Assembly (NCBI GenBank): GCA_000934665.2
Contig: JYFJ02001872.1
Span: 1 to 64,000 of the forward strand
Length of the DNA: 64,000 bases
Reading direction: 5' to 3'
Origin: Catajapyx aquilonaris
Lineage: Eukaryota
This document shows, one piece after another, positions 1 through 63,356 of the stretch (the first letter of the stretch is position 1; each line of letters begins with the position of its first letter). The notes beneath the pieces are model-generated. The model searched no databases. It had not been told where the DNA came from and saw only the letters and a program-made list of their open reading frames with translations. Both the position numbers and the translations under genes were made by a program.

Positions 1-443
1 TTTCTATCTGCCAACCTGCATAAGCCCTGTATTTGTGGTCAAAAAAATAAAGTTTAAAAACTTTCTGACCGACCCTCGTATTATTGAACTCCAGTCTTCT
101 GGTAAAGCCTGATTTCATCAACCATTATACTGTATTTGTCAGTTACGAGCAAGTAGTATCCACAATGAATTCAATTATTTCTCATAGCCTGTTATAAAAT
201 TAGCCTGACGTGTTATAAATGATAGATAATTGGATTAAGTAATCCATAGCTTACTCCACATTTCATGCAAACAAATGCTGTTAATAATACCTATTTAGAG
301 TGTACTTGCATGAACTGTTTTGTTTACACAACTATCAGGATTGTGTTTTTTTAGGACACACGCTCTCCATACATGAAGGGTCCTAATAATGCATACTTCA
401 GCTTATGTGGCACTTATTATTCTTTATGAAAACAACTTTTTAG

Positions 444-3400: not shown

Positions 3401-6400
3401 TAGGCATGCAAAATATTGTGCAACTCAATGAAAAATGCCCAAATTTCGCTGGAAACTATTTTGAAAAAAAGTAGACATTTGTCGACTTCTAATGTGTAAA
3501 TAAAAATTCTGGTGGTGCATTGTGGTTTTTCTAATTTAAAAAAACGGAACTTACTTTCTGGACGCGCCTCGTATGTCATTTTGAACTTGTCTGGACTAGC
3601 ATTTGTTCCTGCCCACGTGCACCACCTCGTGGCGGCACTTGTATAAAATGAGTGGGGGTGACCTCGCTCGCTACTACACAATTCACTCCTACTTGGCTGT
3701 AATCTCAGAGCAATAGACATGTGTAGTTGTCCCCAGTCTGGAGTTTCACTTACTGAACCCATGAGCTAGCCCACCTAGTCGGTACGGCAATTGCGGTTTC
3801 TGACAAACTCATGGCAAAGGTTTGCACACTGGAGGTAGCTTACTCACTGGGTAACTTGTTGTTTTTTCCTAACGTTTTTGATTGCATTACATCCAAATTG
3901 CAATGATTCTCTCTGTTTTGAATTTGGCCGTGCACTGATGGTAATAACAATGATTGGTGTTTGGGACTTACTTGTGAAGGCTCAGGGATGAAGCAAGATT
4001 CCTTGCGGTATTTTGTTGTAATTCAAAAGCTGTCAAATTAGCTTTTGCACTTTAGAGGTACTGTTATTTTATCATAATCTGATCTGGCAGTTATTCAGTT
4101 ACTGTTTGTGCCAACTCTGAAGTGTGTGTCTTTTTTTTGTAGAAAGGTGACTCATCACAACCGTGGGGCTATGGATCTGGATATGTCCAGCAACATCAGC
4201 CAGAGAACCTAGAAGTGGCTCCAAATACATCAAAGCCCAAGCTGATCCATGAGGACACACCTCCACGGTTGGCCACACAGCAGCCGCAGCCGCAGCCGCA
4301 GCAGCAGCAACAGCAACCCCCTCTCTTGCCTACGCCACCAGCAGCCGATCGAAATCAATTCTTAGAGACTGGCCACCTTTTAGAAGAAGTTCCTTTAGTA
4401 GCAACATCTGCAACTGCCTGCACTGCTCCTACTTCTGCCATCACAACTATTGCCACTGCCACCCAACCTAGGCAATCTCTAGAACCCCCAAGTGGGCGCC
4501 AAGAGGAACCTCCCACATTTCAAAGACTTGTTCCTGGAGAGAGTCGGACTCAAGTTTCACAAGCTTCCTCAGCACCACCTCTCTCAACTTCTACCACATT
4601 AACTGACAGTCAAGGGCAACCCCCAACCCCATTCTTAGAGCCACGGATTGTGACTGGGGAGGGTGTCCGGAGTGGTGCTGCTGCATCTGGGAATTCAGCT
4701 GCTGGTGAGGAGCGCAGTGAGACTATTGGGTCAGACAATACGGATGAGGTACCATACCCCATGCCAAAGGACAAGAGTGATCATAGCAGGTGAGCTCAAC
4801 TGCCTGTATGGGAGTGAATTATTTCTGCTATAATATCAATATAATAGAACTCTTTGGAATTAGCAGATAGGCAGCATGTCAATAATGAGTAGTTTGAATT
4901 TCCATGGTAATATGCATGTGTATTCAGAAGCATAATGGTAACCTCATAAATGATGATGCGATCAGAAAGGTAAGAATAAATTGGGAAGCCGTACTGCAAA
5001 AATAATTTATCCACCTTTACAATACAGGGTGAAGGGAAACTCACGCCAAATCGCCAGGTAGACTGATAGTACTTGCAAAACGAATATAGGGATGTGCAAT
5101 TAGTTTTGGGCTCTGTTTCATAGTTAATGCGTGCGGTGCCATCAAAGTTTCGTGACGTCACATCCGTTTCGCCAGCTGCTAAGAAGCAAAAGTCAGCTCG
5201 AAGGCTTCCGATCCCTTGCTTTGGTCCCCTAACACAGCATCCATGTGCAACAGGTGATCAAATCCCGTCAGACCCATTCACCTTGTCATTTTTACCTCGT
5301 ATTTTACCATCATGCCCTCTACACTTTAAAGGCACCGTACGCATTAACTACGCAATGGAGCCAAAAACTAATTACACATCCCTATATTAGTTTTGCGAGT
5401 ACTATCAGTCTACCATGTGATTTGGTGTGAGTTTCCCTTCACCCTGCATACTAAGCTAATGGACAAGTGTATGTTCAGGATTAATGCTCAGTGATAATAA
5501 TAAATTGTAGTTTGTTTGTCAGTTAGTTGAACAGCTCTCATAGTAAGAGAAATTATCATATGTTATAGTATGTGTTAAACTCAGTAACTGCCGTTATTCA
5601 AATCTTGGTAATTAAGTTTACTTTTGGTCATAATTTATGCAAGTAGCATGGAGTTAAGGAATTTTTAAAATGGATAATGGGAGTGCAAATAACTAGACCA
5701 GGGGTATTCAACTAGTTTCTGACAAGGTCCAGTATTTACCTTTCCTGGGCCATAGAAGGTCCGGGACCCCCCCCCCCGCCCCCNTTTCGCCCTTTATGAT
5801 GTCCTGTATACAGGGGCGTAGGCAGAAGAATTTCGGAGGGGGGCCCATTTCGTAAGCACAAGGTGAACAAGCCGTAAAGGGAGGGTTCAAGGTCACACGA
5901 GCTTAGGTGAGATGTGGGAGATTTGAATAGGTGTGTATTTGATGAAATTGGTAGCACTTTTTCCCAAAAAAAATTATGAATTTGTAATTTATCATGCTAT
6001 TTCAAACTGTCCTGTATATTGTCGCGGTCCGGACAAAATTGCGTCGCTGTCCGGATCCGGACCGCGGGCCGCCAGTTGAATATCCCTGAACTAGACTTTG
6101 ATGGTTAAGGCGACGGGATACCTCAGTTTCCTGCCACTTTTCCAGCAACTGAAAAGAAAATAGGGTATGCCGAGGAGTCTTCCACTGACACATTCTGGTC
6201 TATTTCTAAGAAAGTTTGAAGTTCTTTTATGTATGATGTTGAGGTCAATAATGAGAGGTTTTAGTGTCTTCTTGTGTAACTTTCAGGGATGAGAGCCCAT
6301 CCAGCATGGATGAGTTGGCTCCTAGGTGCCACCGTGAGGATCAGCGGAGAGGACGCCAATACTACTCTAGGGAAGGGTCCCCAAAAGAAAGGCGGAAAGG

Positions 6401-12400: not shown

Positions 12401-15400
12401 AGGGAATGAAAACAACACCTCTTTCACTTATATCTTCATAATGCTGAAATGTACTATTTACATTATACAGCTTCTACAGTGCATTTCTGCATCTAATTGT
12501 TATGAAGTTTAATGCCAACCAGAGTAGCATTTAAAATTCTACTCTGGTATGTTGAATTGTGATTTTTTTAAATGATTGGTTTAGAAACAAGGTGATGCAT
12601 ATAGAACAAGTCCCATTTGTGGTCAGTTTTTTGTTTTTTTTAACTTGGCCATCAGCATTTTGGTCGTGAGAAAATAATTCTAGAATTCCTCTGAAATTGA
12701 CGCTTATTTTAGAATATCACACATGGGGTATTGCAGGCATGAGTCTAGGAGAGGAGTTTGTGTGGGTGGTTAATTGTATTCATCTAGGACTTGTGCATTG
12801 CATCATTTGTATGTGGAAAGCTGCCCAACACAAGATATTGTAGAGAATATGTAGATCTCAATATCACAATAATTCCAGTTATGAGAGATCACCACTTGTA
12901 AAAAAAATTGCAAAGACATTCACTTCTGTATGAAGATAGGTACTGCACAGTGGCACATTGTAGAAGTTGCCTTTACTATTAAGTATTGGCTGGGTACTTC
13001 GGTGAAATTGTTAATTAATATTGACTATTTGTAAGTGTTTTGATTGTTATTGTAAAGGGGGGGAAACACACAATATTATTCTTCCAACAAGAAACACTGT
13101 GACAATATCTGCGAGTATATGTCATAATTTTTTAACTCATTAACTGATGCATAACAAATAAAAGTTTCTTGCACAAGGGGTAATTTCTTGCCTGGTATTA
13201 CTAGTATCTAACCATACTCCACGTTTCTGTCGCATATAAGGGGTCGTGCAAATACCACATGACTGTCTTGGGGGGAGGGGGGATCTGCTGATATACCACA
13301 GTTGGTCACTGGGGGGGAAGGGAGGGGGAAAGGGGGGGAGGGGTCGGCAACAGTTCACGTGGTATCTGGTGAATGGACACATATGGGGTCAAAAAGTGGC
13401 CTAAAATTGTCACGTGGTATTTGCACGACCCCTAAGGAGCTTGTTTCAAAGGGCTTTTCGGGGAATTGCTTAAAAGGGTCTTGTTTCCTGCATGCAACCC
13501 TTTTTTTCTGTTCCATGATTACCTACATGAAAATGAATTCAAACCGAGTTTAGATTTTAAATGTGTTCAAGAGCAAGTAATATGAGAAAGATGATGTGAC
13601 AAGAGCCACATATGTGTGGACTCTTTCACTTTCTGATGGCAATTTGCCTGCAAATGTGCCATTTGCAAACAAGTTCTTTAGTAGCACATATGTGGGGCCA
13701 ATAGTTTGCATTGTTGGTTGTAGCCTTTTTGGGGCAATGGCCAAATATTACTTACCAAAAAATTAACTCAATGATTGCAGGCCCTGAGCACCACAGCCAC
13801 TGCAACAAATGACTACAACCAAGAATGGCAACAGTACTACCAAAATCAGCAGCAGGCAGCTGTTACCGATGGGATAGGTGCTACAGGAGCTGCACCCAGC
13901 AATGCCTACCTGACTCCAGCAATTGATGGTAAGAGCCCACATCTATTTTTATATAATTTATTGTAATGCTTTGTCTTCATTCTTACTGATACTGAGAGGT
14001 CAAATAGCATGGCTTTCTAGAAGAAGTGCCATGTTTGTTGACAGTAGAAAGTTGCTCGACAACTGAAGAGAAAATAGCACGCTGTACCTGATCAATAGGG
14101 GCTTGCAGGTGAATGTAAATTGTTGTAATTGATGTAATAGGCACTCAAGCCACTTCTGTCAACGCAACAATAGCTGCCACTTCCATTGGGGATCCACAAG
14201 CTGACTATGGTGCCTATAACCAGTCCTATGGGGTTAACCAATGGGATCAGCCAACCAATCATTATGGTGAGAACACCGAGGACACTTCTGAATCAGCAGG
14301 AGGAGGATTCAACTACTGGGATGCAGCGGTTTCTAACAGACAGGTAGGGTAGATCCTATGCTTTCGCTGTGGTAGATATTTCTCTTTCTTTTGTGGGTAC
14401 TTGTTCGGAAATACTGGACTCACATATCAGGTTCACAGCCTTTGTAATTCCCTTCTATAGATTTGCTGCTGCGTTATGTTCTGTTGTTATAATTGTTGTG
14501 TGTACATGTGTCTGTACTAGTTTTGTTTTTTTTCTCTCTCTTAATTTTGGTGTTTCAGACCACACTGAGGCCATTGAAAACCATAGGTTAGATGTTAATG
14601 AATATTCCAATGAATCTTCTATTTCAAAATTAGGTAACAATCCAAATCAAATGCAACGGCCGATCTGAATTTTGGACGTGCACGTTTCACAAAAAAGTAT
14701 TATTGGCAACACATATTTTATGTCACGTTTTTTGGAGTCATTGCCCTACTCTGATAAGGTGACATTTTCTAGTTGAATAGTCTGCACTGTATCAAGTTCA
14801 AATGGTACTCAATGGTTTCCTGGTAGTGCCAGTGTGAAGTGCTGCCTAGTTAGAGCTGTAAACTTAGAACTAAACAGTGCGACAGGTGTAGAAGGAGAAA
14901 GGCGACTGAAAAAAAGAAGGTCAGATGGCTACCATTCACCCCTGGCCAGCCATCTTTCTTTTTTTTCTTCTCTTTCTCTCTCTCTTTCACCCCACTGCCA
15001 CGACCAAAAGGACCAGCAGCTGCGCAGACGCCGGGGCTCCTCTACTCAGGGCAAGCCCCTTCTTAACACCTCTACCTCTCATCGCTCCAGACATTCCCAT
15101 CCACCACGCCCTCGTCCTCGTCACCGGCCAACCACTCCCAAAGCCTCGCCACCTCCTCAAGCACCTCCAGTCCAAGAGCATGATGCCATGTCAGATGCAT
15201 CAGAAGTTGGACGCACCGTGATGATCCGTGAGCGTCCACTGGTGTTTGGGGGCACTTTTCCAATAGACCTGCCATACATGAAGAGGGGCTTCCTGTCTCA
15301 TCGTTCATCTTCCTCCCCCCACTCATCCGACCATAGTGATGAACCTTCCTCCTCCCATCAACGCAAGACTTCTTCCTCATCTCGCCCCTTGAATTTTCCT

Positions 15401-18400
15401 AGGTCATTCCCAGTGGACATCCCTTGTTGTTCCCCACCCAGCCTGTGCTGGGATCACTCACAGCTGGCCAGAAGGGAGACTTGTGATTGGAAGATGGGAG
15501 CTGATACTTCCGTCAGATAGAGACATCAGGATTTGTTTTAGTCTTACTTGTCTTAGGTCTCTGTGCAGAGTATTTTTGAGTATAGAGTTGCGTAAGAAGT
15601 GATTGCCTGTTGCAAAAGGAGTACCATGCATTGCTTTGATTTTCCGATATCCATGCAATATAAGGTAGTGTATGGTACTCTTACCACATGAATTTGATGG
15701 TTGAATTTAGGTGCAAATCGGACATGTTGCCTAGTTTTTTCATTAAGTCTGTGTGCATGATTTATGCGTGAGATACTTTGGCACATAGTGACTTGAAAAA
15801 CTGCTAGTCAACATTGAAAGCTTGTGACACTGCACCATTGCCAAAAAGTTGAGGCCAAATGCTATTTGAGAGAATATATACCTGCAATGAAATTCTAGTT
15901 GAACTAAATTAGCTATCAAACCTCAACTATCATGAGACAGCGAGCTGGACATAGATGCTAATTTTTGTCACAGATTTTCAGAGGCTGGAAAAATTTGCTT
16001 AATGTTTGCATTTGTTGTTGCAAAATACACAAATGTTTGCTGTTTTGAAGATGGTTTTGGGGAAAAGTGCAGTGGAGATAAATACTGGAGGGCAGTTAAT
16101 TCTACATTTTGACAGGCATACGAGTAATGTTTCCTTGTACTATATCTCTTATTATGCAAATATTATTATGAGTTAGTATTATTTGATCCAGGTTATTTTA
16201 TATTTGCCATTGAATAATTTGATCATATCAGATTGATGCTTTGTAGAGGAGACCATGCAAAGTAGTAAATTAACAACTTTGAACATAAGTTATTCTGAAA
16301 GTATGTAGCATTACTTTAGTCATTGGTGGCAGCTGTGGAAATAACTGCAGAAAGAATTAAAATCATTCCCCTTATGTTATTCTCTTGAGCCGGAAAAACT
16401 GAGGCCATGAGATTTTTAACATGTGCATGTTGTGTCACTCGTAGCAAAGATCTTTAATACTTATGAACTAATCATTGTTGTGACCCTGGGAACATAAGTA
16501 CAAAGCTGCCTTTAAGATGTATACAGTCTCTTGTCAGTGAAATCATTTGCAAATTGTTATGCGAGTTTTTGCAGCTATCATGAATGTGCAGGCAAAGCTC
16601 AATGTAGATATGCAGGTGATTTCTGTAACTATCTCCTACTTTTGTTATCATATTGTGGAGATTTTGGTTATGGGAGATTGAATTGTACTTTCAGCATTGA
16701 ACTATAAGTGAATATCAGAATATTATGTTGTGCTGCACTTTGAATTAGCTGAATAAAGTTGTTGGTTGATTTTATGATGTGTTATGCCTCTTGGTTGTAA
16801 CCAGTGTCACGACACAACAGGCTGTGAACCTGCAGTCCAGTTTTTAAAACAATTTTTCTGTGGGTGTAGGTGAAAGTATGAGGTGGGATAATGAATGGAA
16901 AGTGGTGTGCACGTTCTGATTGTTAACCCCAACCCTCCAGGCCCACGAGCCCGTCCCAAAAGCATCAAGCACACCCCTTCCGAGCAGTGATCAGCCAAAG
17001 CAGCCGACATGGGAATCAGAGCCAAAAAGCAAGAGCAAGGAGAAGGGAAAGTCTGCTGGAGGCCAGATTCAGGCTGGAAAGACACCTGCTTCTGACTCGA
17101 CTGGACTCTCTCAGGCCGGCAGCACTGCGAGCAGTGGAGGGTGGCTTGGAGGGTTGTGGAACAGGTTGTCGCTGCGTCCCAAGAACCAGATGATTCTCCC
17201 AGATGATAAGGATAAATCAGTGAGTAACTTGTCTCTTAAAAACCTAGTTTCACAATGCATCTTGTGCAACTATTAAGGTGCATTTACATGTGAGTGATTT
17301 GAAGAGTGAATTCTTTGCCGAGGATGAAATTAACAATCAATTTCGCCTCAAACAATAATATTGGTTACTTGGGTTACTCACCCTTGGCGAAGATTTCGCT
17401 CGTCAAATCGCTCACATGTAAGCGCACCTTTACGGGTGCCAAAAGCCTGCTTTGGGACCTTCTCCTTGAAGGTAGGCTACAAACCATTCAATCTGTGCAT
17501 GAGATCATCACTGCTCCAAGATGTAGAATCTGCTAAATATTCCCAAATTACACAAAATATAACCTATCCCAGTCTAAAGCTATGAGTGAAGTATCTCTTG
17601 TACAAGCAACTAGATTACAAATTCACACATTATGCTAAGTGATCATACACAGTATAATTCGTTTAATATGTGAAGCCACAAAATGCACTCTATCCGGCTC
17701 TGTTATTCCTTCATAAAGTACTGAAGTCTGTGCTCTTAGATTGTATGGGATGAGGAAAAGAAGAAATGGGTAAATGTGGACCAGGACGAGGATGAGTCTT
17801 CCGGAGGAGGGCCTGCTGCTCCCCCAAGTGACATGGACCTCATGGGGAATGGTGGAGGGGGAATGGTAGGAGGAATGGGGGGAGGAGGAGTGGGAAGTGA
17901 AGTTATGGGCAATCATATAAGCTCAACACCATTAACCTCAACCCCAAGCAGAGGGCCCAGAGAAAGTGATGTTGGTGGCCCTCCTGTAGTTCAGAACATG
18001 GGAATGAACAAATACAAGCGCCCCAAGGGACTCTGTAAGTTGAATTACAGTAATTTATTTGAATTATGTGGTTATCTGTAATGTTGCATTGTTGCATGGG
18101 TGAATCAACCTCAGGTTTCACTTCATGTAAAAATTGCTGAGGTTATTCTATCACTGATGATAATGTTACCCATAAAAGTTTTGAAAATATTATCGAAAAT
18201 GAATTCAGGCTTACAAGAGATTGGAAGTACAGTACCAAAAGTTTTAGGGTAATTGAAGTTCCTGTATGAAAGCTTTGAGAAAATAATTTATTTTGCAGCA
18301 ATGAGACAAAACTATGTGGACATAATGAACCCAGGATCCAATCACACTGGTGCTAATGGACAACCCCAATTAAGTAATGGCAACAACAACAGTGTATCTG

Positions 18401-18679
18401 CTCCGCCAACAAACTACTTCATCCCTTCAACTACTCCCATCACTGATGATGGGTACAGTAATGCTCAGTTAGAAATGAAGCCGGTAAGACATGCAGGCAA
18501 ACTTGGCAGACTATAAATAGGTAAGAGTACTTTATTATTTTTTTCAGGATGCCCAGGGCAACCATGTTGATGTAAGTGGCTCAGCGCCAATGATGTTCAA
18601 CCCCTCCCAGTTTGCCAGCCAGCAACAGCAGCAAGCACCCAGTGCAAACAGGCCTGGTCTCAGGCGTTATCGTAGGTAA
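444..18679 (+). CDS. Sec16: Protein transport protein Sec16 (ER exit site COPII scaffold), 5'-partial, multi-exon
   Basis: Phase-consistent GT-AG exons at about 444-787, 1915/1918-2211, 4143-4789, 6287-6993, 8751-9117, 9767-10163, 10333-10746, 10935-11052, 11114-11706, 13781-13928, 14141-14343, 16941-17219, 17740-18034, 18299-18483 and 18548-18679 (TAA). Sec16 central conserved domain motifs: FPGPLVKG, LLWELLILMLKQNG-NVVGTDIAELLL, LWGHALFLASKMD, NDPLQTLYQLMSGRQP, WGDWQPHLAMILSN, EAIQCTEVYEFA. An Arg-rich region lies upstream. C-terminal motifs: GWLGGLW..PKNQMILPDDKDKSIVWDEEKKKWVN, NYVDIMNP, PMMFNPSQF. The start codon lies upstream of the window. Confidence 0.95.
1027..1800. mobile_element. 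Non-autonomous DNA transposon with short terminal inverted repeats, in a Sec16 intron
   Basis: GGGGTCGTAGCCTT (1027) and AAGGCTAGGACCCC (ending 1800) are reverse complements at 13/14 positions, extendable by aat/att. The interior is GC/CpG-rich, unlike the flanking intron. No clean target-site duplication (TSD) resolved. Confidence 0.7.
2662..3571. mobile_element. Mariner-derived fold-back element made of two inverted transposase 3' ends
   Basis: TA|CGAGGCACGTCCAGAAAGTAAGTTCCG ... CGGAACTTACTTTCTGGACGCGCCTCG|TA. Inverted arms of about 415 bp. Both arms encode a decayed mariner transposase C-terminus (DDELQPSVQGLRKWLAADSYDIGMQNIVQLNEKCPNFAGNYFEKK). Confidence 0.92.
4280..4317 (+). repeat. Coding (CAGCCG)n/(CAG)n repeat encoding a QP/poly-Q tract in Sec16
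   Basis: cagccgcagccgcagccgcagcagcagcaacagcaa inside exon 4143-4789. Confidence 0.8.
5025..5446. mobile_element. Tc1/mariner-type MITE
   Basis: TA|CAGGGTGAAGGGAAACTCAC ... GTGAGTTTCCCTTCACCCTG|CA. Imperfect inverted arms of about 120 bp. The right TA is mutated. Confidence 0.88.
5699..6088. mobile_element. hAT-type MITE with a perfect 8-bp TSD
   Basis: AACTAGAC (5691-5698) | CAGGGGTATTCAACT ... AGTTGAATATCCCTG | AACTAGAC (6089-6096). An 8-bp TSD with CAGGG termini is typical of hAT elements. Confidence 0.92.
6914..6972 (+). repeat. 9-bp coding tandem repeat (GACCCAAGG)n encoding (R/K)DP repeats in the Sec16 Arg-rich exon
   Basis: Four exact GACCCAAGG units preceded by degenerate units; the peptide reads HPRDPKDPRDPRDPRDPRD. 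Confidence 0.8.
7083..7449. mobile_element. Tc1/mariner-type MITE (diverged)
   Basis: TA|CAGGATGTATACAAATCCATCTGCCAAAATGACGGGTGG ... CCACCCGTATCATATTGGCAGATGAATTTATGTATACCCTG|TA. Imperfect arms of about 80 bp. Confidence 0.82.
7775..8418 (+). CDS. Candidate alternative (probably terminal) exon of Sec16, Pro/Ser/His-rich
   Basis: The acceptor cctcctag|AT at 7775 is in phase with the upstream phase-1 donor at 6993. About 213 open codons run to TAG at 8416-8418 inside an otherwise AT-rich intron. No transcript evidence. Confidence 0.45.
9535..9640. repeat. AT-rich degenerate minisatellite / low-complexity tract
   Basis: Recurring aattataac/aattaaaa-like units with very few G or C. Confidence 0.6.
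13240..13432. mobile_element. PIF/Harbinger-type MITE
   Basis: TAA|GGGGTCGTGCAAATACCAC ... GTGGTATTTGCACGACCCC|TAA. Perfect 19-bp terminal inverted repeat (TIR), 3-bp TAA TSD, G-run interior. Confidence 0.92.
15011..15520 (+). CDS. Candidate alternative terminal exon of Sec16
   Basis: A long polypyrimidine tract (about 14952-14993) precedes aaaag|GAC at 15011, phase 0, matching the donor at 14343. 169 open codons run to TAG at 15518-15520 and contain two copies of PLxFxx[TS]FP[IV]D[LI]P. Confidence 0.6.
   Translation, partial: DQQLRRRRGSSTQGKPLLNTSTSHRSRHSHPPRPRPRHRPTTPKASPPPQAPPVQEHDAMSDASEVGRTVMIRERPLVFGGTFPIDLPYMKRGFLSHRSSSSPHSSDHSDEPSSSHQRKTSSSSRPLNFPRSFPVDIPCCSPPSLCWDHSQLARRETCDWKMGADTSVR
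17276..17429. mobile_element. PIF/Harbinger-type hairpin MITE
   Basis: TTA|AGGTGCATTTACATGTGAGTGATTTGA ... TCAAATCGCTCACATGTAAGCGCACCT|TTA. Confidence 0.88.
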
Positions 18680-19063
18680 CCCCTCCTGCCTGCAAGATAG
18701 TGTGCATAATATAGCAAGATTCATCTGGTGGGGTTGGTGAGATTGTCAAAGCATAATGTTAAAAGGCTCACTCGCTCAGTCATAATGGCCTCCAGTGGGT
18801 CTTAAGTGTCTCCGAATAATGTTTTATTTTATTTTTCTCGTTTCACTCTTCTCGGTTCACTGTTACTTGGTTGTGGGACTTGTTGTTTATTAGCCATCCG
18901 GTGAAAATGAATTTAACAGGGAGAGGGTCTAAGTTATATCATGTTATTTCTGTATATTGGCATAGGATGAAAGAAATGTTAGAATCGTAAAATTTCAATT
19001 TGTGATTCGTCCCCAAGCGCATGTGTGCAGTTATGCCACTTTCCCTGGCGTGTATTTAAGATT

Positions 19064-19110
19064 AATAAAAGTATATTTAATGTATGCCCAGGTGCCAATT
19101 AGCATTTATT
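19064..19110. terminator. Facing polyadenylation signals of the convergent Sec16 (+) and APC5 (-) genes
   Basis: AATAAA on + at 19064-19069 and TTTATT (AATAAA on -) at 19105-19110, each downstream of the respective stop codon. Confidence 0.55.
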
Positions 19111-19409
19111 TCACCTAAGTACAAATGGTTATTTTTTTCATCATATCCAACTTCCCCCTCATTTCCCCCTCTGGAAAGTAAGTGCAAAAATATCTCCACA
19201 CAGATCCATACTTTCTTCATGTACAGTGTGCGCATATATAATTTTCATGCATGTAAGAATTCGGTTCAAAAAATATTAAAATCTGATAGTCGTTACAGCT
19301 TCTGAGACAATGAAATAGGTACACTGGAAGCATACATACATTTGAAAGCTTACTAGCATTTTCTACACTTAATGAGCTTCGGAAAGTGGAATGGCAACTT
19401 GTCTTCAAC

Positions 19410-22400
19410 TTAGAAGAGAGAGAGAGAATGTGAAGGTATCTTCGTAGGGTGTTGCTCATCCAGCAGCCGAAATTCCTTGGCACTTTGATTTCGCTCAGCA
19501 ACACGTCTTATCTGATTATACAGCAGGGCCTGCAGGTACAGGGAATCCTTTGCTCGTTGCACATCACCTACCTTCAAGAAGGCAGTCTTTGCCTCGTGAA
19601 GCAATTCTGTAGCCTGCTCAATTGCTTCCTGGTTATCATCGCTGTTACATGTCACAACGCACTTGGCTCTAAGCATCATGGCCCGTCCTCTCTCCCATGG
19701 CCCACACTGAGCAAAAACTGAGGTCAAGCATTTGTCAATTATTGATAAGGCAAGGTGTGCCTGACCAAGATGTAGTTGTGCATGGGCCAAGTGCATTTGG
19801 GTCAGGGCACCCACCCGGAACATGTGATACTTCTTGCAGAGAGCAGTAGCCTCACTCAGGCTCTGGAGTGTGCCAGGGTAGTTTTCAACTGAGAAGTGAA
19901 TCTCAGCTTGCACCAGAATGGCTTCGGCCCGTAGGAGTGGAATCACAGTGTGGTCATCATCAGAAGTGTCCAGCTCAGCCAGCAGTGTTCGGATGGTAGA
20001 CATTGCATATGGGGCCTGCCCTGCTGCAATCTAGATTAATCAATAAGCAAACTGAATTAGTTCAAATCTCTGCATGTTATTTGTAAGTGGATAGTCAGCT
20101 CAAGGTAAGGTAAGGAAGCTTTAAGTTGCAGTTGACAAATTCGCAGCTTCCTTCTCAATTAGGAGAATGCAGTGGGCATGCAAGAGACTGGAGACATTTT
20201 CTAACACGATGTTAAGTAAAGTCACTTTATTCCCAAATGCCATGTAGATTGGTTCTCCATTACACACAGCTTCCCCTGACAATTATTGCACAAAGCATAA
20301 GTTGTTTATGGTGCCACCAAAGAATTCACACAAATTAAAAAGCTTGACTTCTGGGTTATCACAACGTAGAGAAAAATTATAGGAGAAATTTTCGGGAAAC
20401 AATATAAATGTTTCTAATGTGTTGGTGAGAAGAAAAACAATTACAGAACAAGAAGAGGAACACGAAGCTGAAGGAGGGAAATGCACAATATTTAAAATGA
20501 CGTTAGTAATCTATCATGTTTTCTCCACCATCCTTCCTCCTGGACTGTGAGGAGTGCCTGTAATGTGTGTCACTTGAAATAGCAGTGATATGGTTTAAAT
20601 ATTTTTATGTATTTCTGGCACCTTAAATCATGCAATAATTCACACAAGTTTGTCGAAATTTACCTGCAACCTTGCTAAGAACAGCCTTCCTTCCAAAGGA
20701 CGGAAAGGCATCATGGCTTCCACTGCCCTCCTGGCATCATCCCACTTCCCATCCCACAGCTTCTCACGAAAACGCAGTGCTGCATCAGTTGCAATCCATG
20801 GTCCACTCTGTCCTTCCTCACCTGGGAAACACTGTTTTGCATGATCCAAAACTGCAGTGGCTGCTTGCAATTCTCCTTCCGAATGTAACCATTCAGCCAG
20901 TCCACACAAGGCAAGACAAACACTTTCGCCTTGGATATGCAACCCACCCATGCGCATATCTGATGTGTTCAGCAATAACAAGAGCTGGTTCTGCAATGCT
21001 GCAGTCAGACCCTTGCCATACATGCTCCAAAGCACTGAACGTAACAAGTAACCTTTCACAAGGAGATGGGGTTCATAGTGCTGTACACACAGGAAGTCAT
21101 TGCGTGACAGCTCTTTAAAGACATCACAAGGGGTATCACCATTCAAAGCACGCTCCTTTACAGCAGCTTGTACTGACGAAGCAGCAACAGACCACAACGA
21201 TAGTTCCATACTGCGCGCAAGAGCACATTCAGCAAGCTGAAGACGAGAATCATTGCGGAGGCGGTGCAGCCAGGCCAGGGTTTGTTGCAGTGCAGCATGG
21301 TCGTTGCTGTCCTGCGCCATGGCTACTGCCTCACCCAATGCAGTCAGTGCTTCTTTACGGTGCCCAAATGTGGCATGAAGAGCTGCCAAGTTCAATGCTG
21401 CATACCTATAACATATTGTGTGAAGTGAACTTAACTATTCTTGACCTATTCCAATTGATTTGTAAGTAAAGGCCCATACACACAGGCCGTCGACGGTTTT
21501 GGTCTTTGGTCGCGTTGACGCCGCGGAACAATCATGACTCGTGTAAACAAGCGCAACACATTGTTTACAGTTTGTTTACATGAATCATGATTGGTCCGCG
21601 GCGTCAATGCGACCAAAGACCAAAACCGTCGACCGCCTGTGTGTATGGGCCTTATGTCATCTAAAAAGAATTATACAACTACTACCACAAATATGGTCAT
21701 AAAACAGGTATAAAGTGCCCAGACTTGGGAAAGGTAAATCTCTGATTATGAATCCAGTGTCACAATAATGAGGGATTATTTCCCTAATTTGACCTGATAG
21801 AACTGATCCTCATTCCTCACCTCAAATCTGGGCATTTACACCGACAATAGTATAAGTAAAATGCACACCTGTAACCCTTCTTCTGGTCTTCACTTCCTCG
21901 ATTCCCATCAGCACTAGCAGAAACAGTGATGGGACTGCTTCGGTCAAAGCTATGGTGCAAACTGTGCAGTGACCCACAGAACTCCTTACTCCTCAGGCAG
22001 TTGAGGAAGCTTAAGTAGTGTGCCTCGGCCAGGTCTGGATTTGCCTCCAGAAGCTGGTGAATAGTCCTCTGCAGCTCAGGTGGAGACTGCGCAGCACACT
22101 CATGATCCTGTAGCAACTTTGCCTGCTGTGCCAGAATAAGTTCTGCCTGGCGACGAGATGTTGATCCAGGTGCGCAAGTGTCATCTACTGATACATCATG
22201 CTCACGAAGGTCAAGCATGCTGGTGAGCTTCTCATTGAGGTCCATAACTTCTTCAGTGTTGTCCAATACTGGTCGCGATTCCTCCTTCTCCCAGGGTAAC
22301 TTAACTCTGTGACAATAAGACTGGAATGCTTCAGCTGCCTGCACCACCTATGCATAAACAAAAATAACGCGAATATTGCTATCTGCAAATCATAGTTTTG

Positions 22401-45552: not shown

Positions 45553-46631
45553 TCAGTACTCCTTCCTGTCACCCCAGTTGATTCCATCATAAGGCAGTGG
45601 GGATGGCACCAATGGATTGAGCCATGCCAAATACCACCTGGAACCCATGGCCTCTTCCAGATTGGCTTCCCAACCTGCATCATAAACTCTCAATTTATCG
45701 ACATTCTCTCTGGAGGTTTGACCTCGCAGGGTCAGTCGCAGATGGTGGTACAGAAATGCTCCTGAGAGCAAAACTCCAACAACGTTGACTGCATAGAGTA
45801 AGAGGTACAGTTGGCTTGGGGATGAGTCAACACCCAGGACCAGAACAATCATGGGCAGCACTATCTTAAGTAGCCCAAGGACTGAAGACATATCAATGTG
45901 TTCCCAAACAAAGGTGTGGTTCAGAATTGTGCTGTAGGCGGTGGCCAAGCAGAGATGGAGGAGGAAGGAAAGAAAGTAGCGCTGAGTGTTGTGACCGATA
46001 CAGCATCCGGTGAACATGCAGTGGTGGTCCCGCTTCAGGATGCAGATGTGGCAGGTGTGACAGTGTCGCGTGCGGGGTGGAGCAGCTGATTCACACACTG
46101 CACAGAAGTGCCATCCAGGTGGGAGATAGCCTGTAAAAATAAAAGTACATACAGAAGGCAGAAGTCCGGCAGAAGTCCATGCACTAAGGACAGTGAAACC
46201 AGTTTGTAGCTGAGTTTCTTCATTTCACAAAAATTGCTTAACTGAACAAGTTTCTGTTAGCTTAACTGTCGATAAAAACACACTGGTTGAGCCAAAATGG
46301 CAATATCAGAGTTGTTGGTTTTGAAATAGTATTAGCTTGGTATTAGTTATTAGATAAGCAAGACCATACTTGGCATCATGAGTCCACGTGTGCTGGTGTC
46401 AATGACGACGCATGCAGCAAAGTTGGAAACGAGGTTGATGAGCATGAACGTTCCAACAACCAGGTTGACATAATACCACACGGTCTCTCCTGGAAACTGG
46501 TGAGGAATGACAACAAAGATCTCAAACCAGTAGATGATGGGGATCATCATGGCAAGAAACAGGAGGGAGGCCCAGTCAGCCAGCACTCTTGGGCGCCACC
46601 GTGTACGGTACCGCACATCTGCTTCCGACAT
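45553..46631 (-). CDS. DHHC palmitoyltransferase, ZDHHC24-like (about 279 aa)
   Basis: Exons 46631-46370 and 46130-45553 (phase 1). Two transmembrane (TM) segments precede GWHFCAVCESAAPPRTRHCHTCHICILKRDHHCMFTGCCIGHNTQRYF, followed by further TM segments and YDAGWEANLEEAMGSRWYLAWLNPLVPSPLPYDGINW. The C-terminus resembles the ZDHHC24 group. Confidence 0.93.
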
Positions 46632-57761: not shown

Positions 57762-60700
57762 TTAGAAGGCCTTCAGTGCTTCCATTGCTCTAGATATCCT
57801 GGCCAATTCTCCATCCAATTGTGTTGCCTTCTCTGAATTTGCTTTGCGAACTTCCTCAGGCACCTTCGTCTCATAGTCTGCCACCTGCATTGCTTGTAAA
57901 AGCCGTCCCAGTTGTGAATCTAGCTGTTCCTTCTTGCGCTCCAGCTTCTGCTGTTCCTTCGCTGCATCAACCAATCCCTGGAAATTTTCCATTGTTTACT
58001 AGAACTAACTTAAGAGGACACAATTTACTAACCTGCAGTAATAGATGAACTTCACACTTATCTGATACAGTGACAACAGCACACCCTCCTGGAGGGTTGG
58101 CAGTGACTTCAACCTTTCCGCATGATGCAAGTGTTGCTATTGTCCCAGCATATTCATTGACAATTGATGTTGTCAACTTGTCAGAGCAGCACAGAAACAC
58201 TGTGAAGGTGGGATAAAACAAAGTGCAACAGTTCTAATGCAATGCTACTTCCCACAGGATTGCATATAATATTCATAATCCTCCTAATTGGCATTGATAC
58301 AACTGGAGTTAATTGTTCCATACATTAGGTTACTAGCTTCATTGTGTACTTACGATCAGTTTTCACTTTGTTTGGCAGCACATAATCAGATTTGGTGGAC
58401 CGAACAGTGTGAACAATCTTCTGAACAAACTCGACCTCTTGTTCAATGTTCGCATCACTCCAGTGATACTGTTGGAAAAGTAAAGACTTAAAATTGACCC
58501 CTCTAACAAGGCATATGTGCCTACCTGGGTCTCCTCTGGATACTCTGCAACACCTATGCTGTTGGCTGCTTTATCACGTGGTAGCCGTTGATACAGCTCC
58601 TCACTCAGGAAGGGCATAAATGGGGATATGAGCCTAAGACCCACGTCAAGGCAGATCCAAAGCACGTTGGACTCGAGAGTTGTATCGGCCCCTGATTGGA
58701 AGTGAGGCTTAAGGTACTCCAGGTACACATCACACAGCTCATACAACCAGAAGTTGTAACAGGCAGTGGTTGCTGCATTCAGATCATAGGCTGAAAACCC
58801 TTCATTGCAGGTGCGCACAGCCTCACTCAGCCTGCTCAATATCCACCGGTCCATTTTGGTCAGCTTGGAATTTAGGCCAGAATTGGACAGGTTTGCTTCC
58901 ATATTCCGCTTCCAGCGAGCTAGGTGTGGCAGATGATCCACTGGTAAGTTTCCAATGGACAAGAAGGTGTCCGAGTCCAGTTTGGATGCTGTCCATCCCT
59001 GCAGGTAGCTCTGTTCTGCCAACTTATCATTCAGGTTCTTGAGCTCACTTTCAGTTACATGGCCGCTGGTTTCCTGTGATGCTGTTATGTGTTTAGAGTT
59101 GGGGCAGAAAGAAGGAGGCAGTACTGAGAGAGCAAAGCGAGTTGCATTCCAGAGCTTGTTGCAGAAGAAACGGTAACCTTGTACACGCAAGACGTCCAAG
59201 TTGATGTCACGTCCTGTTAGAGGTAAGATGGAAAGTGACCTTCAGAAATGCATTTTGTAAATAAAACTTTACATAAGGATCCACATCCTAGCATAAAATA
59301 TGACACCTACCTTGCGAGGTAATAATAATAATAATTAATAATTGATACCCCATTATCAGCCCATTGGGCTTTATTAGGGGGGGATTTCTCCCAATTTTTT
59401 GTCGGGAACTCTTTCCATTTTTACTATACTTTTTCATCGGAATTGAGGCAAGGATAGGTAAGGAAGGAAGCGGCTGTGGCCTATAGCTACCTTGCGAGGT
59501 GTATGCACAGAGGGCAAATCGAAGTGCATCACTGCCACATTCTGGGATACCATTAGGGTAGTCCTGCTTCTGACCTTCCATTGCCCTTTTCACTTCAGTA
59601 GGATCCAGGTTTCCACCTTGCAGCTGGGCATGTAATCCCTGCCAGACATGACAATGTTAGCATGAGAATCTAATTTTGAACACCTGTGGTCACACTCACT
59701 TCTAAGGAAATTCCTGTGATGACATCCAGAGGATCAATGATGTTTCCCAGTGATTTACTCATCTTTCGCCCATGGGCATCTCGTACCATAGCATGGAGAT
59801 ATACCTCTCTGGAATTGCAGCCAAGTTACCAAGGAAGTCATGTTGAAATCAATACGAGTGGGTAAATGCTCACTTGAAAGGCAGTTGTCCCATAAGTTTC
59901 TGTCCAAAGAAGACCATTCTTGCAACCCAAAAGAAAATTATATCATGCCCTGTCTCAAGAAGAGTCCCAGGGTAGAAAGCTTTCAGGTCTTCCGTCTAAA
60001 TGGCAAATATTATTCAGATTTAATAGGCTGTCATGATAGTAATTCATAAAACAAATGGTAGATACCTGCTCAGGCCATCCCAAAGTTGAAAAGGGGAAGA
60101 GACCTGAGGAAAACCAAGTATCCAGTACATCACCATCCTGCTTGAGACTGATCTTGTCTGGAGACACTCCAAATTTAGCTGCAGCCTCTGTCTTGGCTTC
60201 CTCTTCTGTGTGCCCACTAACCCAGTACTTGTTGTCAAGTTCCTGTGAGAGATCCAGCATTTAATATTACATCATGCTTGCCAGCAGCAGTACTTACATT
60301 TCCTGCAGGAACTGAAGGGTCATTCACAGTGACAAAGTAAGCAGGGATGCGATGGCCCCACCACAGCTGACGTGAGATACACCAGTCCCTACGAATAAAA
60401 GTAGAGAAAGATTGGAGGAAGAATGCACCTCTATACTGTATTGACATAAGATCTCCATTGACATTTTTTGCTGAATATTTTGACACTCCTTACCTATACC
60501 GTGCATAAGAATTATTCTGCTTCTGCGCTTGTAGAACTCATGGGTAAAAGCAATGAAAAACCGAACGCACCTGATGTTCTCCATCCAGTGAAACCAGGTC
60601 TTTTTGTGAGTGTCAGGAATAATTCGAAGTTCTCCTGATTGGACTGCTTGGATGGCATTGGCAGCCAAATCATCACAGCGAACATACCTGCAAGTATATG

Positions 60701-63356
60701 GTAACTGAATGTGATACTGAAACTGAGAGGAATGTTACTCATATTGAGGTCAAATCTCTCCTATCTCATAAAGTCACTGTCACAACCTTTACTTAATATT
60801 GAGTTGTAATTTACTCAAGCTCTGAACTTGTCATACTGGGTGGAAGTGTGAAAATCTGAAATTTCTCAACAGCTGTTTGCTATTTGCTTGGTCAATGTCA
60901 ATACCACTGGGATGAATGGAGCCTACGTAAAGACTTATTAAATAATGAGCCACATATTGTGGACTCAATTTCATACAGCCACAGGTGGAAAAGAAAGTGA
61001 CCAGTGACAACTGCATAAAATATCTGAGAGCTTTGTATATCACAGATTCCGCAGTGTGACTGGGCCTCATCTCTGCCGTCAGTTGTAAGAAGACCGTAAC
61101 TCAAAAACTAGTAAGGGCGAAAGTCGCATGCATGCCGTGCACTTATCCACCCTGGCTCAGAGGGGATTAGTGCAGGGCGTGCATGCGACTTTCGCCCGTA
61201 GTGGTTTTCGAGTTACGGTCTTCTTACATCTGACGGCAGATCTGAGGCACAAGAATTTGATCAAAATGGAATACTCACCACTGAGGCTTGATAAGGGGCT
61301 CAACAATATCTTTGGAGCGGCTGCATACGGGAACCACCATTGGATTGTCCTTGGTATCTCGATATAAATTTAAGTCCTTAAGGGCCTTCAAGACAGCCTT
61401 GCGAGCATCAAACCTCTTCATACCCTGTTTAAACAAAATACTGAATGAAGATTCTATGCAATCAGGGAATTAAAATAAATTCAGTTTAAAGCTACTAGCT
61501 AATTTTTTGCAGCCTTATGAATAGTATCACTGAAATTAAATAATATTAATCACTCCTCAATAACCTAATGCCATAAAGCAATAAAAGTGTACTATCGGAA
61601 ATGATACTCACTTTGAACTGCTCACATTCACCAATGATGTTACCCTCATCATCTAGGATGGTGATGAAGGGCAAATTGTTCCTCATTCCCACCTCATAGT
61701 CATTATGGTCATGAGCAGGAGTTATCTTGACTGCACCAGTGCCAAATTCTTTGTCAACAAACTCATCACAAATTATGGGCAGACGTCTGGAGCAGAATGG
61801 ATGCTTCACAAATTTTCCATGCAGGTGCTTGTAACGGGGATCATCTGGATGTACAGCTACAGCAGTATCGCCGAGCATGGTTTCTATTCGAGTAGTGGCC
61901 ACTACAACTTCACCTTCTTCTCCATCTACCTGGTATGCAAAGGACACCAGGACCCCAAATTCAACCTTTGTTGCATAGCCTGGCACAGACAGTAGAGTAC
62001 GTCCAGGGAGCTCCTGCTTGTCCACCTCAATGTCAGAGATGGCAGACTTGAGGGTGCAAGACCAGTTGACCAATCTGGCACTCCTGTAAATGTCACCTGA
62101 GTGATGCAAGCGCACAAATGCCTCCCTAACAGCACGGGATGGTGCAGGATCCATGGTAAAGCAGACACGGTCCCAGTCCAGAGAGGAACCCAAAATGCGC
62201 AGTTGGTGATAGATGTGATCTCCCTTACTAGAAAAGAAAAATTTCTTTGTAGCCCATTGGTGCAAAAACTGTGGGGCTTTGGAATGACCCATGGGAATAA
62301 TACCAACAAAACTGGACAGGCATTGAGCTGCGAGACTTAAATTTCCATCTTGGTATGACTGCTCCTCAAATGTGAGAACCTGAGAAATCTAAACCTTTCA
62401 TTGTGTGGTGTTTGTCCTTATCTACAATTCGAATTTTAGCATGACTGCAGCAAAATCTTTGGTATTTATTGCGTGAGGCAAGATGATGCTCATGTTGCAG
62501 TGATATTTCTCCAAGCTTGGCATACTTTTAACTTACTCTTTTTTCCAATCCCAGACTTTCTGCACAAATTTCTCTCTTCCTAGGTCGTGTCGTGTGAGTT
62601 TTTCCTCTTTCCACAAACGTTTCTCCACCACTACCTGGGTAGCAATTCCAGCATGATCACAACCAGGAACCCATAGCGTGGTCCTTCCTTTCATTCGGTG
62701 CCATCTCGTCAGAGCATCCTCAATGGAATTAGTGAGCGCATGGCCCAGATGGAGACTACCAGTCACATTGGGAGGAGGGATAACCATCACAAACTTGCCC
62801 TTTGGGTTCTCCTCACCAATTTTCTTGCCCTGAAGATCATGGAAAAAAAACACATTGGGCTGATTCGGAGTTGATTTAATTGTGATCATGCATTGTATAA
62901 CTTGGTACTGCTAATTTAAGGAATAGATTATCGTACATGAACTTGTGTGAAAGCCTGCATACCCCATACTCTGGCTTGAAGAATCCTTCCTTCTCCCACC
63001 AGGCGTACCAGGCAGCCTCCACAAACTTGGGGCTGTAAGCATCAGGCATGGCCCCCGAGACGTCCTTCTTCTCTCCTGGGCGAGTGTTGCCCTGGTACAC
63101 AGCAGCCTCCTCCTTCTTCTTGGGCTCCCTCTTCGGCTTACTCTGAAAACCACATGCTCATCATCAGTATGCCGGATAACGGCAAGGAGTAACACCCACC
63201 CACCTCCACAGATTTATTATCCTTTACAGGCTGGGCCACCTTCTGCTCCTGCTTCTGCTTGAATTTTTCCATCTTGGCCATCTTCTTGGCCTCCTTCTCC
63301 AACTGCTTGGCCGTCTTGGGAGGCTGCTGCCCCTCAGCTTCGCCAACACCGTTCAT
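57762..63356 (-). CDS. VARS1: Valine--tRNA ligase (cytosolic type)
   Basis: Exons at about 63356-63204, 63142-62963, 62829-62537, 62227-61612, 61424-61279, 60687-60571, 60388-60298, 60242-60066, 59995-59874, 59808-59700, 59638-59491, 59213-58525, 58468-58354, 58199-58033 and 57977-57762. Motifs: [15 protein letters not shown] (HIGH), [34 protein letters not shown] (KMSKS), the anticodon-binding helices and a C-terminal coiled coil. The start assignment ([21 protein letters not shown]) is inferred. Confidence 0.97.
59321..59486 (-). mobile_element. 5'-truncated SINE-like retroposon with an (ATT)n tail and a 14-bp TSD
   Basis: Direct repeat CTACCTTGCGAGGT at 59307-59320 and 59487-59500. On - the insert starts CTATAGGCCACAGCCGCTTCCTTCC, a motif I recall from insect tRNA-derived SINEs, and ends in ATTATTAATTATTATTATTATT. 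Confidence 0.85.
61073..61239. mobile_element. CTGCC..GGCAG family palindromic MITE (copy 3, full length)
   Basis: ATCT|CTGCCGTCAGTTGTAAGAAGACCGTAACTC ... GAGTTACGGTCTTCTTACATCTGACGGCAG|ATCT. 4-bp TSD. Confidence 0.92.

Follow-up and report, generated by a model that had tools for sequence, protein, structure and literature searches.

The valyl-tRNA synthetase locus and its duplicated donor

The window considered here, 64,000 nt of contig JYFJ02001872.1 from Catajapyx aquilonaris (positions 1 to 64,000), contains a multi-exon gene on the minus strand, running from about 63365 to 57768, whose translated exons correspond to a class I valyl-tRNA synthetase (ValRS). One intron of this gene carries a repetitive insert, probably a short interspersed element (SINE), with a copy of the exon's splice donor on either side of it. 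The gene has the KMSKS motif (59765-59751, minus strand), and PF00133, PF13603 and PF08264, covering the catalytic, editing and anticodon-binding domains, are all matched in its translated exons (Pfam); the anticodon-binding domain, PF08264, lies in exon 58525..59213 (E = 1.3e-27). About 15 exons are covered by two arthropod ValRS proteins (tblastn). A protein search with exon 12 returned 4,218 proteins with E <= 1e-10, the named ones almost all ValRS, and among the 120 listed of these the best full-coverage matches were arthropod ValRS proteins at 41-51% identity; none closer was among them, and the animal's own proteins are therefore missing from that database. With animal orthology added to motif and domains, the gene belongs with the class I ValRS enzymes and, judged by its sequence, encodes the cytosolic form of valyl-tRNA synthetase in an arthropod-like animal.

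Five sequencing runs were found for the DNA of the window, four of them from one DNA sample and the fifth, X5, from a different sample and study. Logan contigs from three of the DNA runs (X1, X3 and X4, all of one sample, on which the assembly may be based) and from X5 were compared with positions 58300-60400. The kind of X5 is not on record, and it is read as RNA-like from its spliced contig alone.

Within 59100-59700 there is a single family of direct repeats, a pair of 14-nt sequences, CTACCTTGCGAGGT, at 59307-59320 and 59487-59500, which are 100% identical, lie 180 nt apart from start to start and bracket exactly a 166-nt insert at 59321-59486. On the minus strand the repeat reads ACCTCGCAAG/GTAG, where the slash marks the splice boundary. 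That boundary was placed at 59491/59490 by the spliced contig and by orthologue alignment, and therefore each repeat copy holds the last 10 bases of the exon and the first 4 of the intron. The proximal, exon-adjacent donor is cgcaag/GTAGCT (59490) and the distal donor is cgcaag/GTAGGT (59310); they agree at every position from -10 to +4, and +5 is the first at which they diverge. Two competent donors thus face one acceptor, with an in-frame extension between them, as in an alternative 5' splice site. The ancestral intron would span 59214-59310 (97 nt).

Is the 14-nt repeat a target-site duplication (TSD)? Because it brackets exactly the stretch over which the depth of the DNA contigs jumps 30- to 4,000-fold, it is a TSD and not chance. 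A chance repeat was rejected, a perfect 14-nt match at a fixed offset having a probability of about 4^-14 and the repeat coinciding with the boundary of the high-copy stretch; tandem duplication was rejected as well, since the insert is unlike its flanks. The initial annotation of this stretch, made from the letters and their reading frames, had proposed a 14-bp TSD across the exon/intron junction with two donors 180 bp apart, and this arrangement is indeed present. It had also taken the distal copy for the original donor and the one nearer to consensus, which agrees with its G at +5, a base also present in 11 of the 13 remaining ValRS donors. The features around the junction are the following.

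59491..59638, minus strand: ValRS exon 11, ending ...CAYTSQ(G); from the X5 spliced contig, with 0 differences, and tblastn
59487..59500, minus strand: upstream TSD copy (in the sense of the gene), holding the used donor AAG/GTAGCT; from the perfect repeat and the spliced contig joint 59212/3 to 59490/1
59321..59486, minus strand: the insert, a 5'-truncated, sense-oriented copy of a high-copy, probably SINE-type retroposon; from contig depth and loose ends
59307..59320, minus strand: downstream TSD copy with the original donor (AAG ends at 59311, GTAGGT starts at 59310), now intronic; from the repeat search and the donor sequences
59214..59490, minus strand: the present intron, 277 nt; from the contig joint, CT..AC on the plus strand being GT..AG on the minus strand
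58525..59213, minus strand: the next ValRS exon (exon 12), starting with (G); from the X5 spliced contig

Copy number and class of the insert

In the three DNA runs the flanks have a depth of 23-36, and the summed depth over the insert rises from 661-901 (59294-59364) to 14,000-20,000 (59365-59435) and 94,000-158,000 (59436-59506), the top bin reaching about 4,000 times the flank, where summed contig depth is not to be read as copy number, as the tool itself warns. Each DNA run has 269-345 contigs on the insert. Five single contigs at 41-65 times the flank depth match it over 51-57 nt with 0-1 differences, and the insert thus belongs to a young subfamily of near-identical copies. Contigs anchored in the unique flanks enter the insert from both sides in all three runs (58300-59393 or 59374 on one side, 59456-60400 on the other) and stop inside it; the middle is tiled by exact-match short contigs in X1 and X3, and the listed pieces from the middle in X4 have 1-3 differences. 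An assembly artefact was rejected, since contigs from the three runs cross both junctions of the insert. The copies are interspersed, the jump in depth coming with no tandem arrangement, and within the 64 kb window no second copy was found (blastn, word size 7: the insert itself and 18 matches of 11-34 nt, E >= 0.028), nor any LINE (long interspersed element) whose end resembles that of the insert. The insert is therefore a genuine high-copy repeat. The perfect repeat and the jump in contig depth bear out the proposal of a multi-copy retroposon with a real TSD, and its description as recent agrees with a TSD free of mismatches and with an insert that matches the commonest repeat variants exactly; the element family looks to have been active recently.

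What kind of retroposon is it? Two parts of the insert bear on the question.

59321..59342, minus strand: simple-repeat 3' tail ATTATTA(ATT)5; read directly, the contig analysis having skipped 59315-59347 as repeat
59449..59484, minus strand: the insert's most repeated block, a possible conserved body domain of SINEs; from the top depth bin, loose ends and recurrence of a 20-mer

The tail directly abuts the downstream TSD copy, so that the perfect 14-nt TSD and the simple-repeat 3' tail expected of a SINE are both found. Dozens of contigs per DNA run match the insert up to 59483-59485 and then run on into semi-conserved sequence that is not at the ValRS locus; other copies are therefore longer there, and the ValRS copy is 5'-truncated. 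A truncated sense copy with a tail and a 14-nt TSD carries the signature of target-primed reverse transcription, from which we infer this mode of insertion. Many contigs share only 59449/52-59484 with the insert and then split into at least three different continuations, and depth peaks at the 5' side of the element and is least at its tail. This profile is the reverse of that of a 5'-truncating family of long interspersed elements (LINEs) and fits modular SINEs with a shared body domain. SINE superfamilies (CORE, V, Nin, Deu, Inv, Pln, Meta and others) are described as having a head, a conserved body block shared across different tails, and tails that are either simple repeats or LINE-like (PMC5804259). 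The depth profile, the loose ends and the metagenome relatives discussed below fit the modular pattern; the ValRS insert is unlike these elements in being a headless copy whose block is not matched to a named domain. A 14-letter piece of the core block was found neither in the literature text nor in the one supplement of PMC5804259 that was searched (consensus sequences are not in the searchable text), and the block was therefore not assigned to a named conserved-domain superfamily.

Relatives of the core block were sought in a metagenome collection, in which a 25-mer of the block has 0 exact matches and the 20-nt prefix of that 25-mer, GGCCACAGCCGCTTCCTTCC, has 18. Six of these (L001, L004, L009, L012, L015 and L017) were set aside, having prokaryote-like, unrelated flanks. 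The other 12 (L002, L003, L005-L008, L010, L011, L013, L014, L016 and L018) are eukaryote-like, with a common architecture in the same orientation, and look like host DNA in metagenomes with a conserved SINE domain. Four of them look like duplicates, and the 8 distinct loci were aligned: they share a body and the sequence GnTTCnAATCTnnG about 100 nt upstream of the 20-mer, and they end about 110-120 nt downstream of it. GnTTCnAATCTnnG resembles the B box of RNA polymerase III (pol III) promoters. Rfam found no tRNA head on the 8 loci; its one tRNA match, in L005, is on the opposite strand (90-171, minus strand; 34.5 bits, E = 0.00019), about 230 nt from the SINE-like core, and is not the head of the element. 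With a profile of the 8 metagenome elements, nhmmer found in the window only 59484-59458, a match by construction, and two matches at E > 1.

Some observations tell against the assignment to SINEs. The likeness of the insert to the metagenome elements extends over only 27-35 nt, of which 20 are the search pattern. There is no pol III head and no A or B box in the insert copy (166 nt, 5'-truncated), and an Rfam scan of 58500-60500 at E <= 10 gave five chance-level matches, none of them tRNA-like. The insert might instead derive from the 3' end of an autonomous LINE, shortened on its 5' side, or be a piece of some other class of repeat. Truncation at the 5' end is typical of LINEs, the lack of A and B boxes would agree with such an origin, and RTE-type LINEs may end in AT-rich trinucleotide tails, such as the insert has. 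Against a LINE stand the depth profile already described, the metagenome relatives of the block, with their B-box-like motif and their end about 110-120 nt after it, and the occurrence of the most repeated block in families with different 3' parts, as in SINE superfamilies with a conserved body domain (PMC5804259). As to other classes, a DNA transposon was rejected, the insert having no terminal inverted repeats and a TSD of 14 nt. Such a TSD is long for DNA transposons. We regard an origin outside the SINEs as unlikely, and the insert as probably SINE-type. The SINE label is likely but unproven, because the insert copy lacks its 5' part and no pol III head is seen in it; of the SINE proposed by the initial annotation, the multi-copy retroposon with its TSD has stood, and the class has the standing just given.

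Choice of donor, and other features of the gene

Which of the two donors is used? A 3,329-nt contig of X5 agrees with the window at every one of 1,325 exon bases. Within 58300-60400 it omits five GT-AG introns, 56-277 nt long, among them 59214-59490, where it joins 59491 to 59213; this is the joint of the proximal donor, or of an allele without the insert, which would look no different. In orthologues the same junction is bridged straight (tblastn; P0031 at residue 726, P0033 at residue 713), and five ValRS proteins are gap-free across it, with CAYT(T/S)QGRDINLD or CSYIMQGRDINLD. As the orthologues have no insertion at the junction, the joint from 59491 to 59213 gives the normal protein, and the earlier proposal that normal protein depends on the proximal junction is borne out. 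That proposal also placed the junction just after the KMSKS region; it does lie downstream of KMSKS, but some 67 residues after it (KMSKS starts at 59765) rather than directly.

The distal joint, from 59311 to 59213, is not among the contigs, which drop rare variants, so that a minor isoform could escape. Nor does X5 cover 59223-59293, or show depth in 59507-59577 beyond that of the mRNA contig, as far as contig data go. The 0 differences over 1.3 kb suggest that the RNA donor was very close in genotype to the sequenced animal. In the contigs of X1, X3 and X4, which come from one DNA sample and show presence rather than absence, there is no empty-site joint or branch. Because the contigs run unbranched from flank to insert, with no empty-site joint in the three DNA runs, the sequenced animal apparently lives with the insert allele of an essential gene. 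Since the genotype of the RNA donor is close and the DNA sample shows no empty allele, it is likely that carriers of the insert use the proximal donor, and we infer that the RNA came from an insert-bearing allele.

The insertion could instead be polymorphic, and the RNA could come from an animal that lacks it, in which case X5 would say nothing of splicing in carriers. The perfect TSD and the near-identical subfamily fit a recent event, and RNA and DNA are from different samples and studies. The exact agreement of the RNA contig over 1,325 exon bases speaks for the same strain or a very close genotype, and the lack of an empty-site contig, a weak point given that contigs show presence and not absence, runs the same way; we think it rather improbable that the RNA-giving animal was without the insertion.

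Several considerations weigh against proximal splicing in carriers. The RNA-like sample differs from the DNA sample, an empty allele would give the identical exon-exon junction, and contigs, which drop rare variants, could miss a minor distal isoform. By general splice-site rules, moreover, the distal donor should compete well, with its G at +5, its shorter distance to the acceptor and the 97-nt intron that its use would restore. How unusual is the proximal donor within its own gene? The comparison set consists of 14 donors, six from RNA-supported introns and eight from orthologue-guided prediction (two predictions disagreed with the RNA, and the RNA-supported sites were used instead), and 11 of the 14 have G at +5. 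The others are the proximal donor itself (C), the RNA-supported GTATCT at 60065 (C) and the predicted GTGGAG at 63209 (A). The second of these belongs to an RNA-supported intron of 70 nt (59996-60065, minus strand) whose donor, cag/GTATCT, is non-consensus, with C at +5 like the proximal donor; a +5 C donor is functional elsewhere in the same transcript. Predicted ValRS introns reach 540 nt, and intron length is therefore no obstacle.

If an appreciable fraction of transcripts in carriers used the distal donor, or if it were used in particular tissues or conditions, the element would be exonised and ValRS would gain 60 residues between CAYTSQ and GRDINLD. The 180 nt between the donors (59311-59490, minus strand) are in frame and form 60 codons with no stop in the coding frame, as the initial annotation had reported. 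The frame is open in 26 of 5,000 dinucleotide shuffles of the 180 nt, a frequency biased by the site having been flagged at the outset partly for its open frame, a feature noticed after the fact; 6 and 4 stops occur in the two remaining sense frames. Being in frame, the product would not be subject to nonsense-mediated decay. With these points in its favor go the better fit of the distal donor to consensus (+5 G), its closeness to the acceptor, and RNA evidence that consists of one contig from another sample. On the other hand, the canonical joint is the only one seen at this intron, and the selection bias takes force from the open frame. The added residues would interrupt a motif left unbroken in all the orthologues examined, and they would end in a hydrophobic LLIIIII run, so that a working enzyme seems unlikely. 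Exon 11 together with the insert has no match among solved structures at E <= 0.001, and these therefore give no placement of the insertion point. Exonisation of this kind is, in our estimate, quite unlikely.

A further feature of the insert may bear on the choice between the donors.

59448..59460, minus strand: pyrimidine block UACCUAUCCUUGC (RNA), complementary to the distal donor; from RNA pairing prediction

The block (59460-59448) is predicted to pair with the distal donor (59316-59304) through 12 bp with one bulge, at -17.2 kcal/mol. Among 2,000 shuffles of the insert 9 reach this energy, as do 62 of 5,976 15-mers drawn at random from the window and 4 of 250 AG/GT sites; it thus falls in the lowest 0.5-1.6% of its controls, for a pairing noticed after the fact. 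On the same scale the proximal donor stands at -11.3 and the 13 other ValRS donors at -5.4 to -12.8. When 381 nt of context are folded, the bases of the distal donor pair with the block with a probability of 0.83-0.97, which counts against exonisation, and the proximal donor lies in a shorter local hairpin with partner probabilities of 0.72-0.90. Taken as a whole, the intron region folds with no exceptional stability (z = -0.73, a level reached by 26 of 100 shuffles). The block recurs without differences in high-depth contigs, and it is therefore common sequence of the family, not private to the ValRS copy. The stretch just upstream of it resembles the 5' end of U1 small nuclear RNA.

On the strength of this prediction, the element might itself silence the displaced donor: the block at 59448-59460 would form a duplex with 59304-59316 and leave the weaker, exon-adjacent copy to U1, and the insertion would have been tolerated for that reason. 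We hold this to be very doubtful. The complementarity could arise by chance at the 1% level; it could also be a survivorship effect, if an essential gene tolerates an insertion solely where the displaced donor is masked. Were masking true, the retroposon would have made a structure-gated alternative donor in one step, and a relaxation of the pairing, through temperature, helicases or a variant of the block, would yield an in-frame ValRS with 60 additional residues.

Elsewhere in the same gene, ValRS has an insert of about 65 residues at 58882-59076 (minus strand), between the NKLWNAT helix and the anticodon-binding domain. It is expressed, being contiguous within the X5 spliced contig, and has a sub-threshold Pfam match to Arc1p_N_like (E = 0.0083). 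Many arthropod ValRS proteins named 'isoform X1' have it, and it is absent from 'isoform X2' and from an annelid; one protein carrying it is named 'Probable elongation factor 1-beta', and the insert appears to be an EF-1beta/GST-C-like module transferred into the body of arthropod ValRS. Further along the window, a neighboring gene fragment at 45556-46224 (minus strand) encodes a DHHC palmitoyltransferase domain (PF01529, E = 2e-29), and the window has two single N bases, at 5784 and 33554.

Origin of the two donors and comparison with known systems

How might the arrangement have arisen? A copy of a high-copy, SINE-type non-LTR (long terminal repeat) retroposon would have inserted in sense orientation four bases past the ValRS donor by target-primed reverse transcription, and a staggered cut at the target would have given the 14-nt duplication of the last 10 exon and first 4 intron bases. 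The new exon-adjacent donor, AAG/GTAGCT, would owe its +5 and +6 bases to the element, and the original donor, AAG/GTAGGT, would have ended up 180 nt deeper in the intron. The spliceosome would then pick the exon-adjacent copy, and the element and the old donor would be removed together, the intron growing from 97 to 277 nt with the protein unchanged. We consider this account as a whole, in which a young, 5'-truncated SINE-type insertion copied the donor and the exon-adjacent copy is the one spliced, to be likely.

Exonisation of intronic SINEs is well known in general, Alu exons being an example that is also mentioned in PMC7349775. Classical Alu exons arise from antisense copies that gain splice sites by mutation, and they form cassette exons. 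The ValRS insert is similar in that an intronic SINE offers sequence for the mRNA through an alternative splice site. It differs in that the site is ready-made, being the gene's own duplicated donor, and in that the outcome would be the extension of an exon. The nearest described parallel is the canine merle allele, in which a SINE lies at the boundary of PMEL intron 10 and exon 11, a 15-bp TSD contains the original acceptor, and the protein is normal or aberrant according to whether the original or a cryptic site is spliced (PMC7349775). In both cases a SINE sits on a splice junction, the TSD contains the original site, normal protein hinges on the choice of site and the alternative exonises the SINE. 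In merle it is an acceptor that is affected, the SINE is antisense, the length of its poly(T) tunes the choice, the cryptic site lies within the SINE and there is a visible phenotype, whereas at ValRS the site is a donor, the element is in sense orientation, the competitor is the duplicated original donor and the normal junction alone has been seen. The principle of a SINE on a splice junction is thus already known from merle, here acting on a donor, and on present evidence the ValRS insertion looks like an ordinary intronic SINE insertion.

What the locus illustrates is that a TSD can copy a splice signal and so leave an essential gene instantly with two competing donors, and that an allele of this kind is able to survive where splicing takes the exon-adjacent donor. 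Should carriers make the isoform with 60 additional residues, or should the element mask the old donor, the locus would show in nature how a retroposon can create or neutralize an alternative splice site in a single step. The element family, with its appearance of recent activity, may also serve as a population marker in the species.

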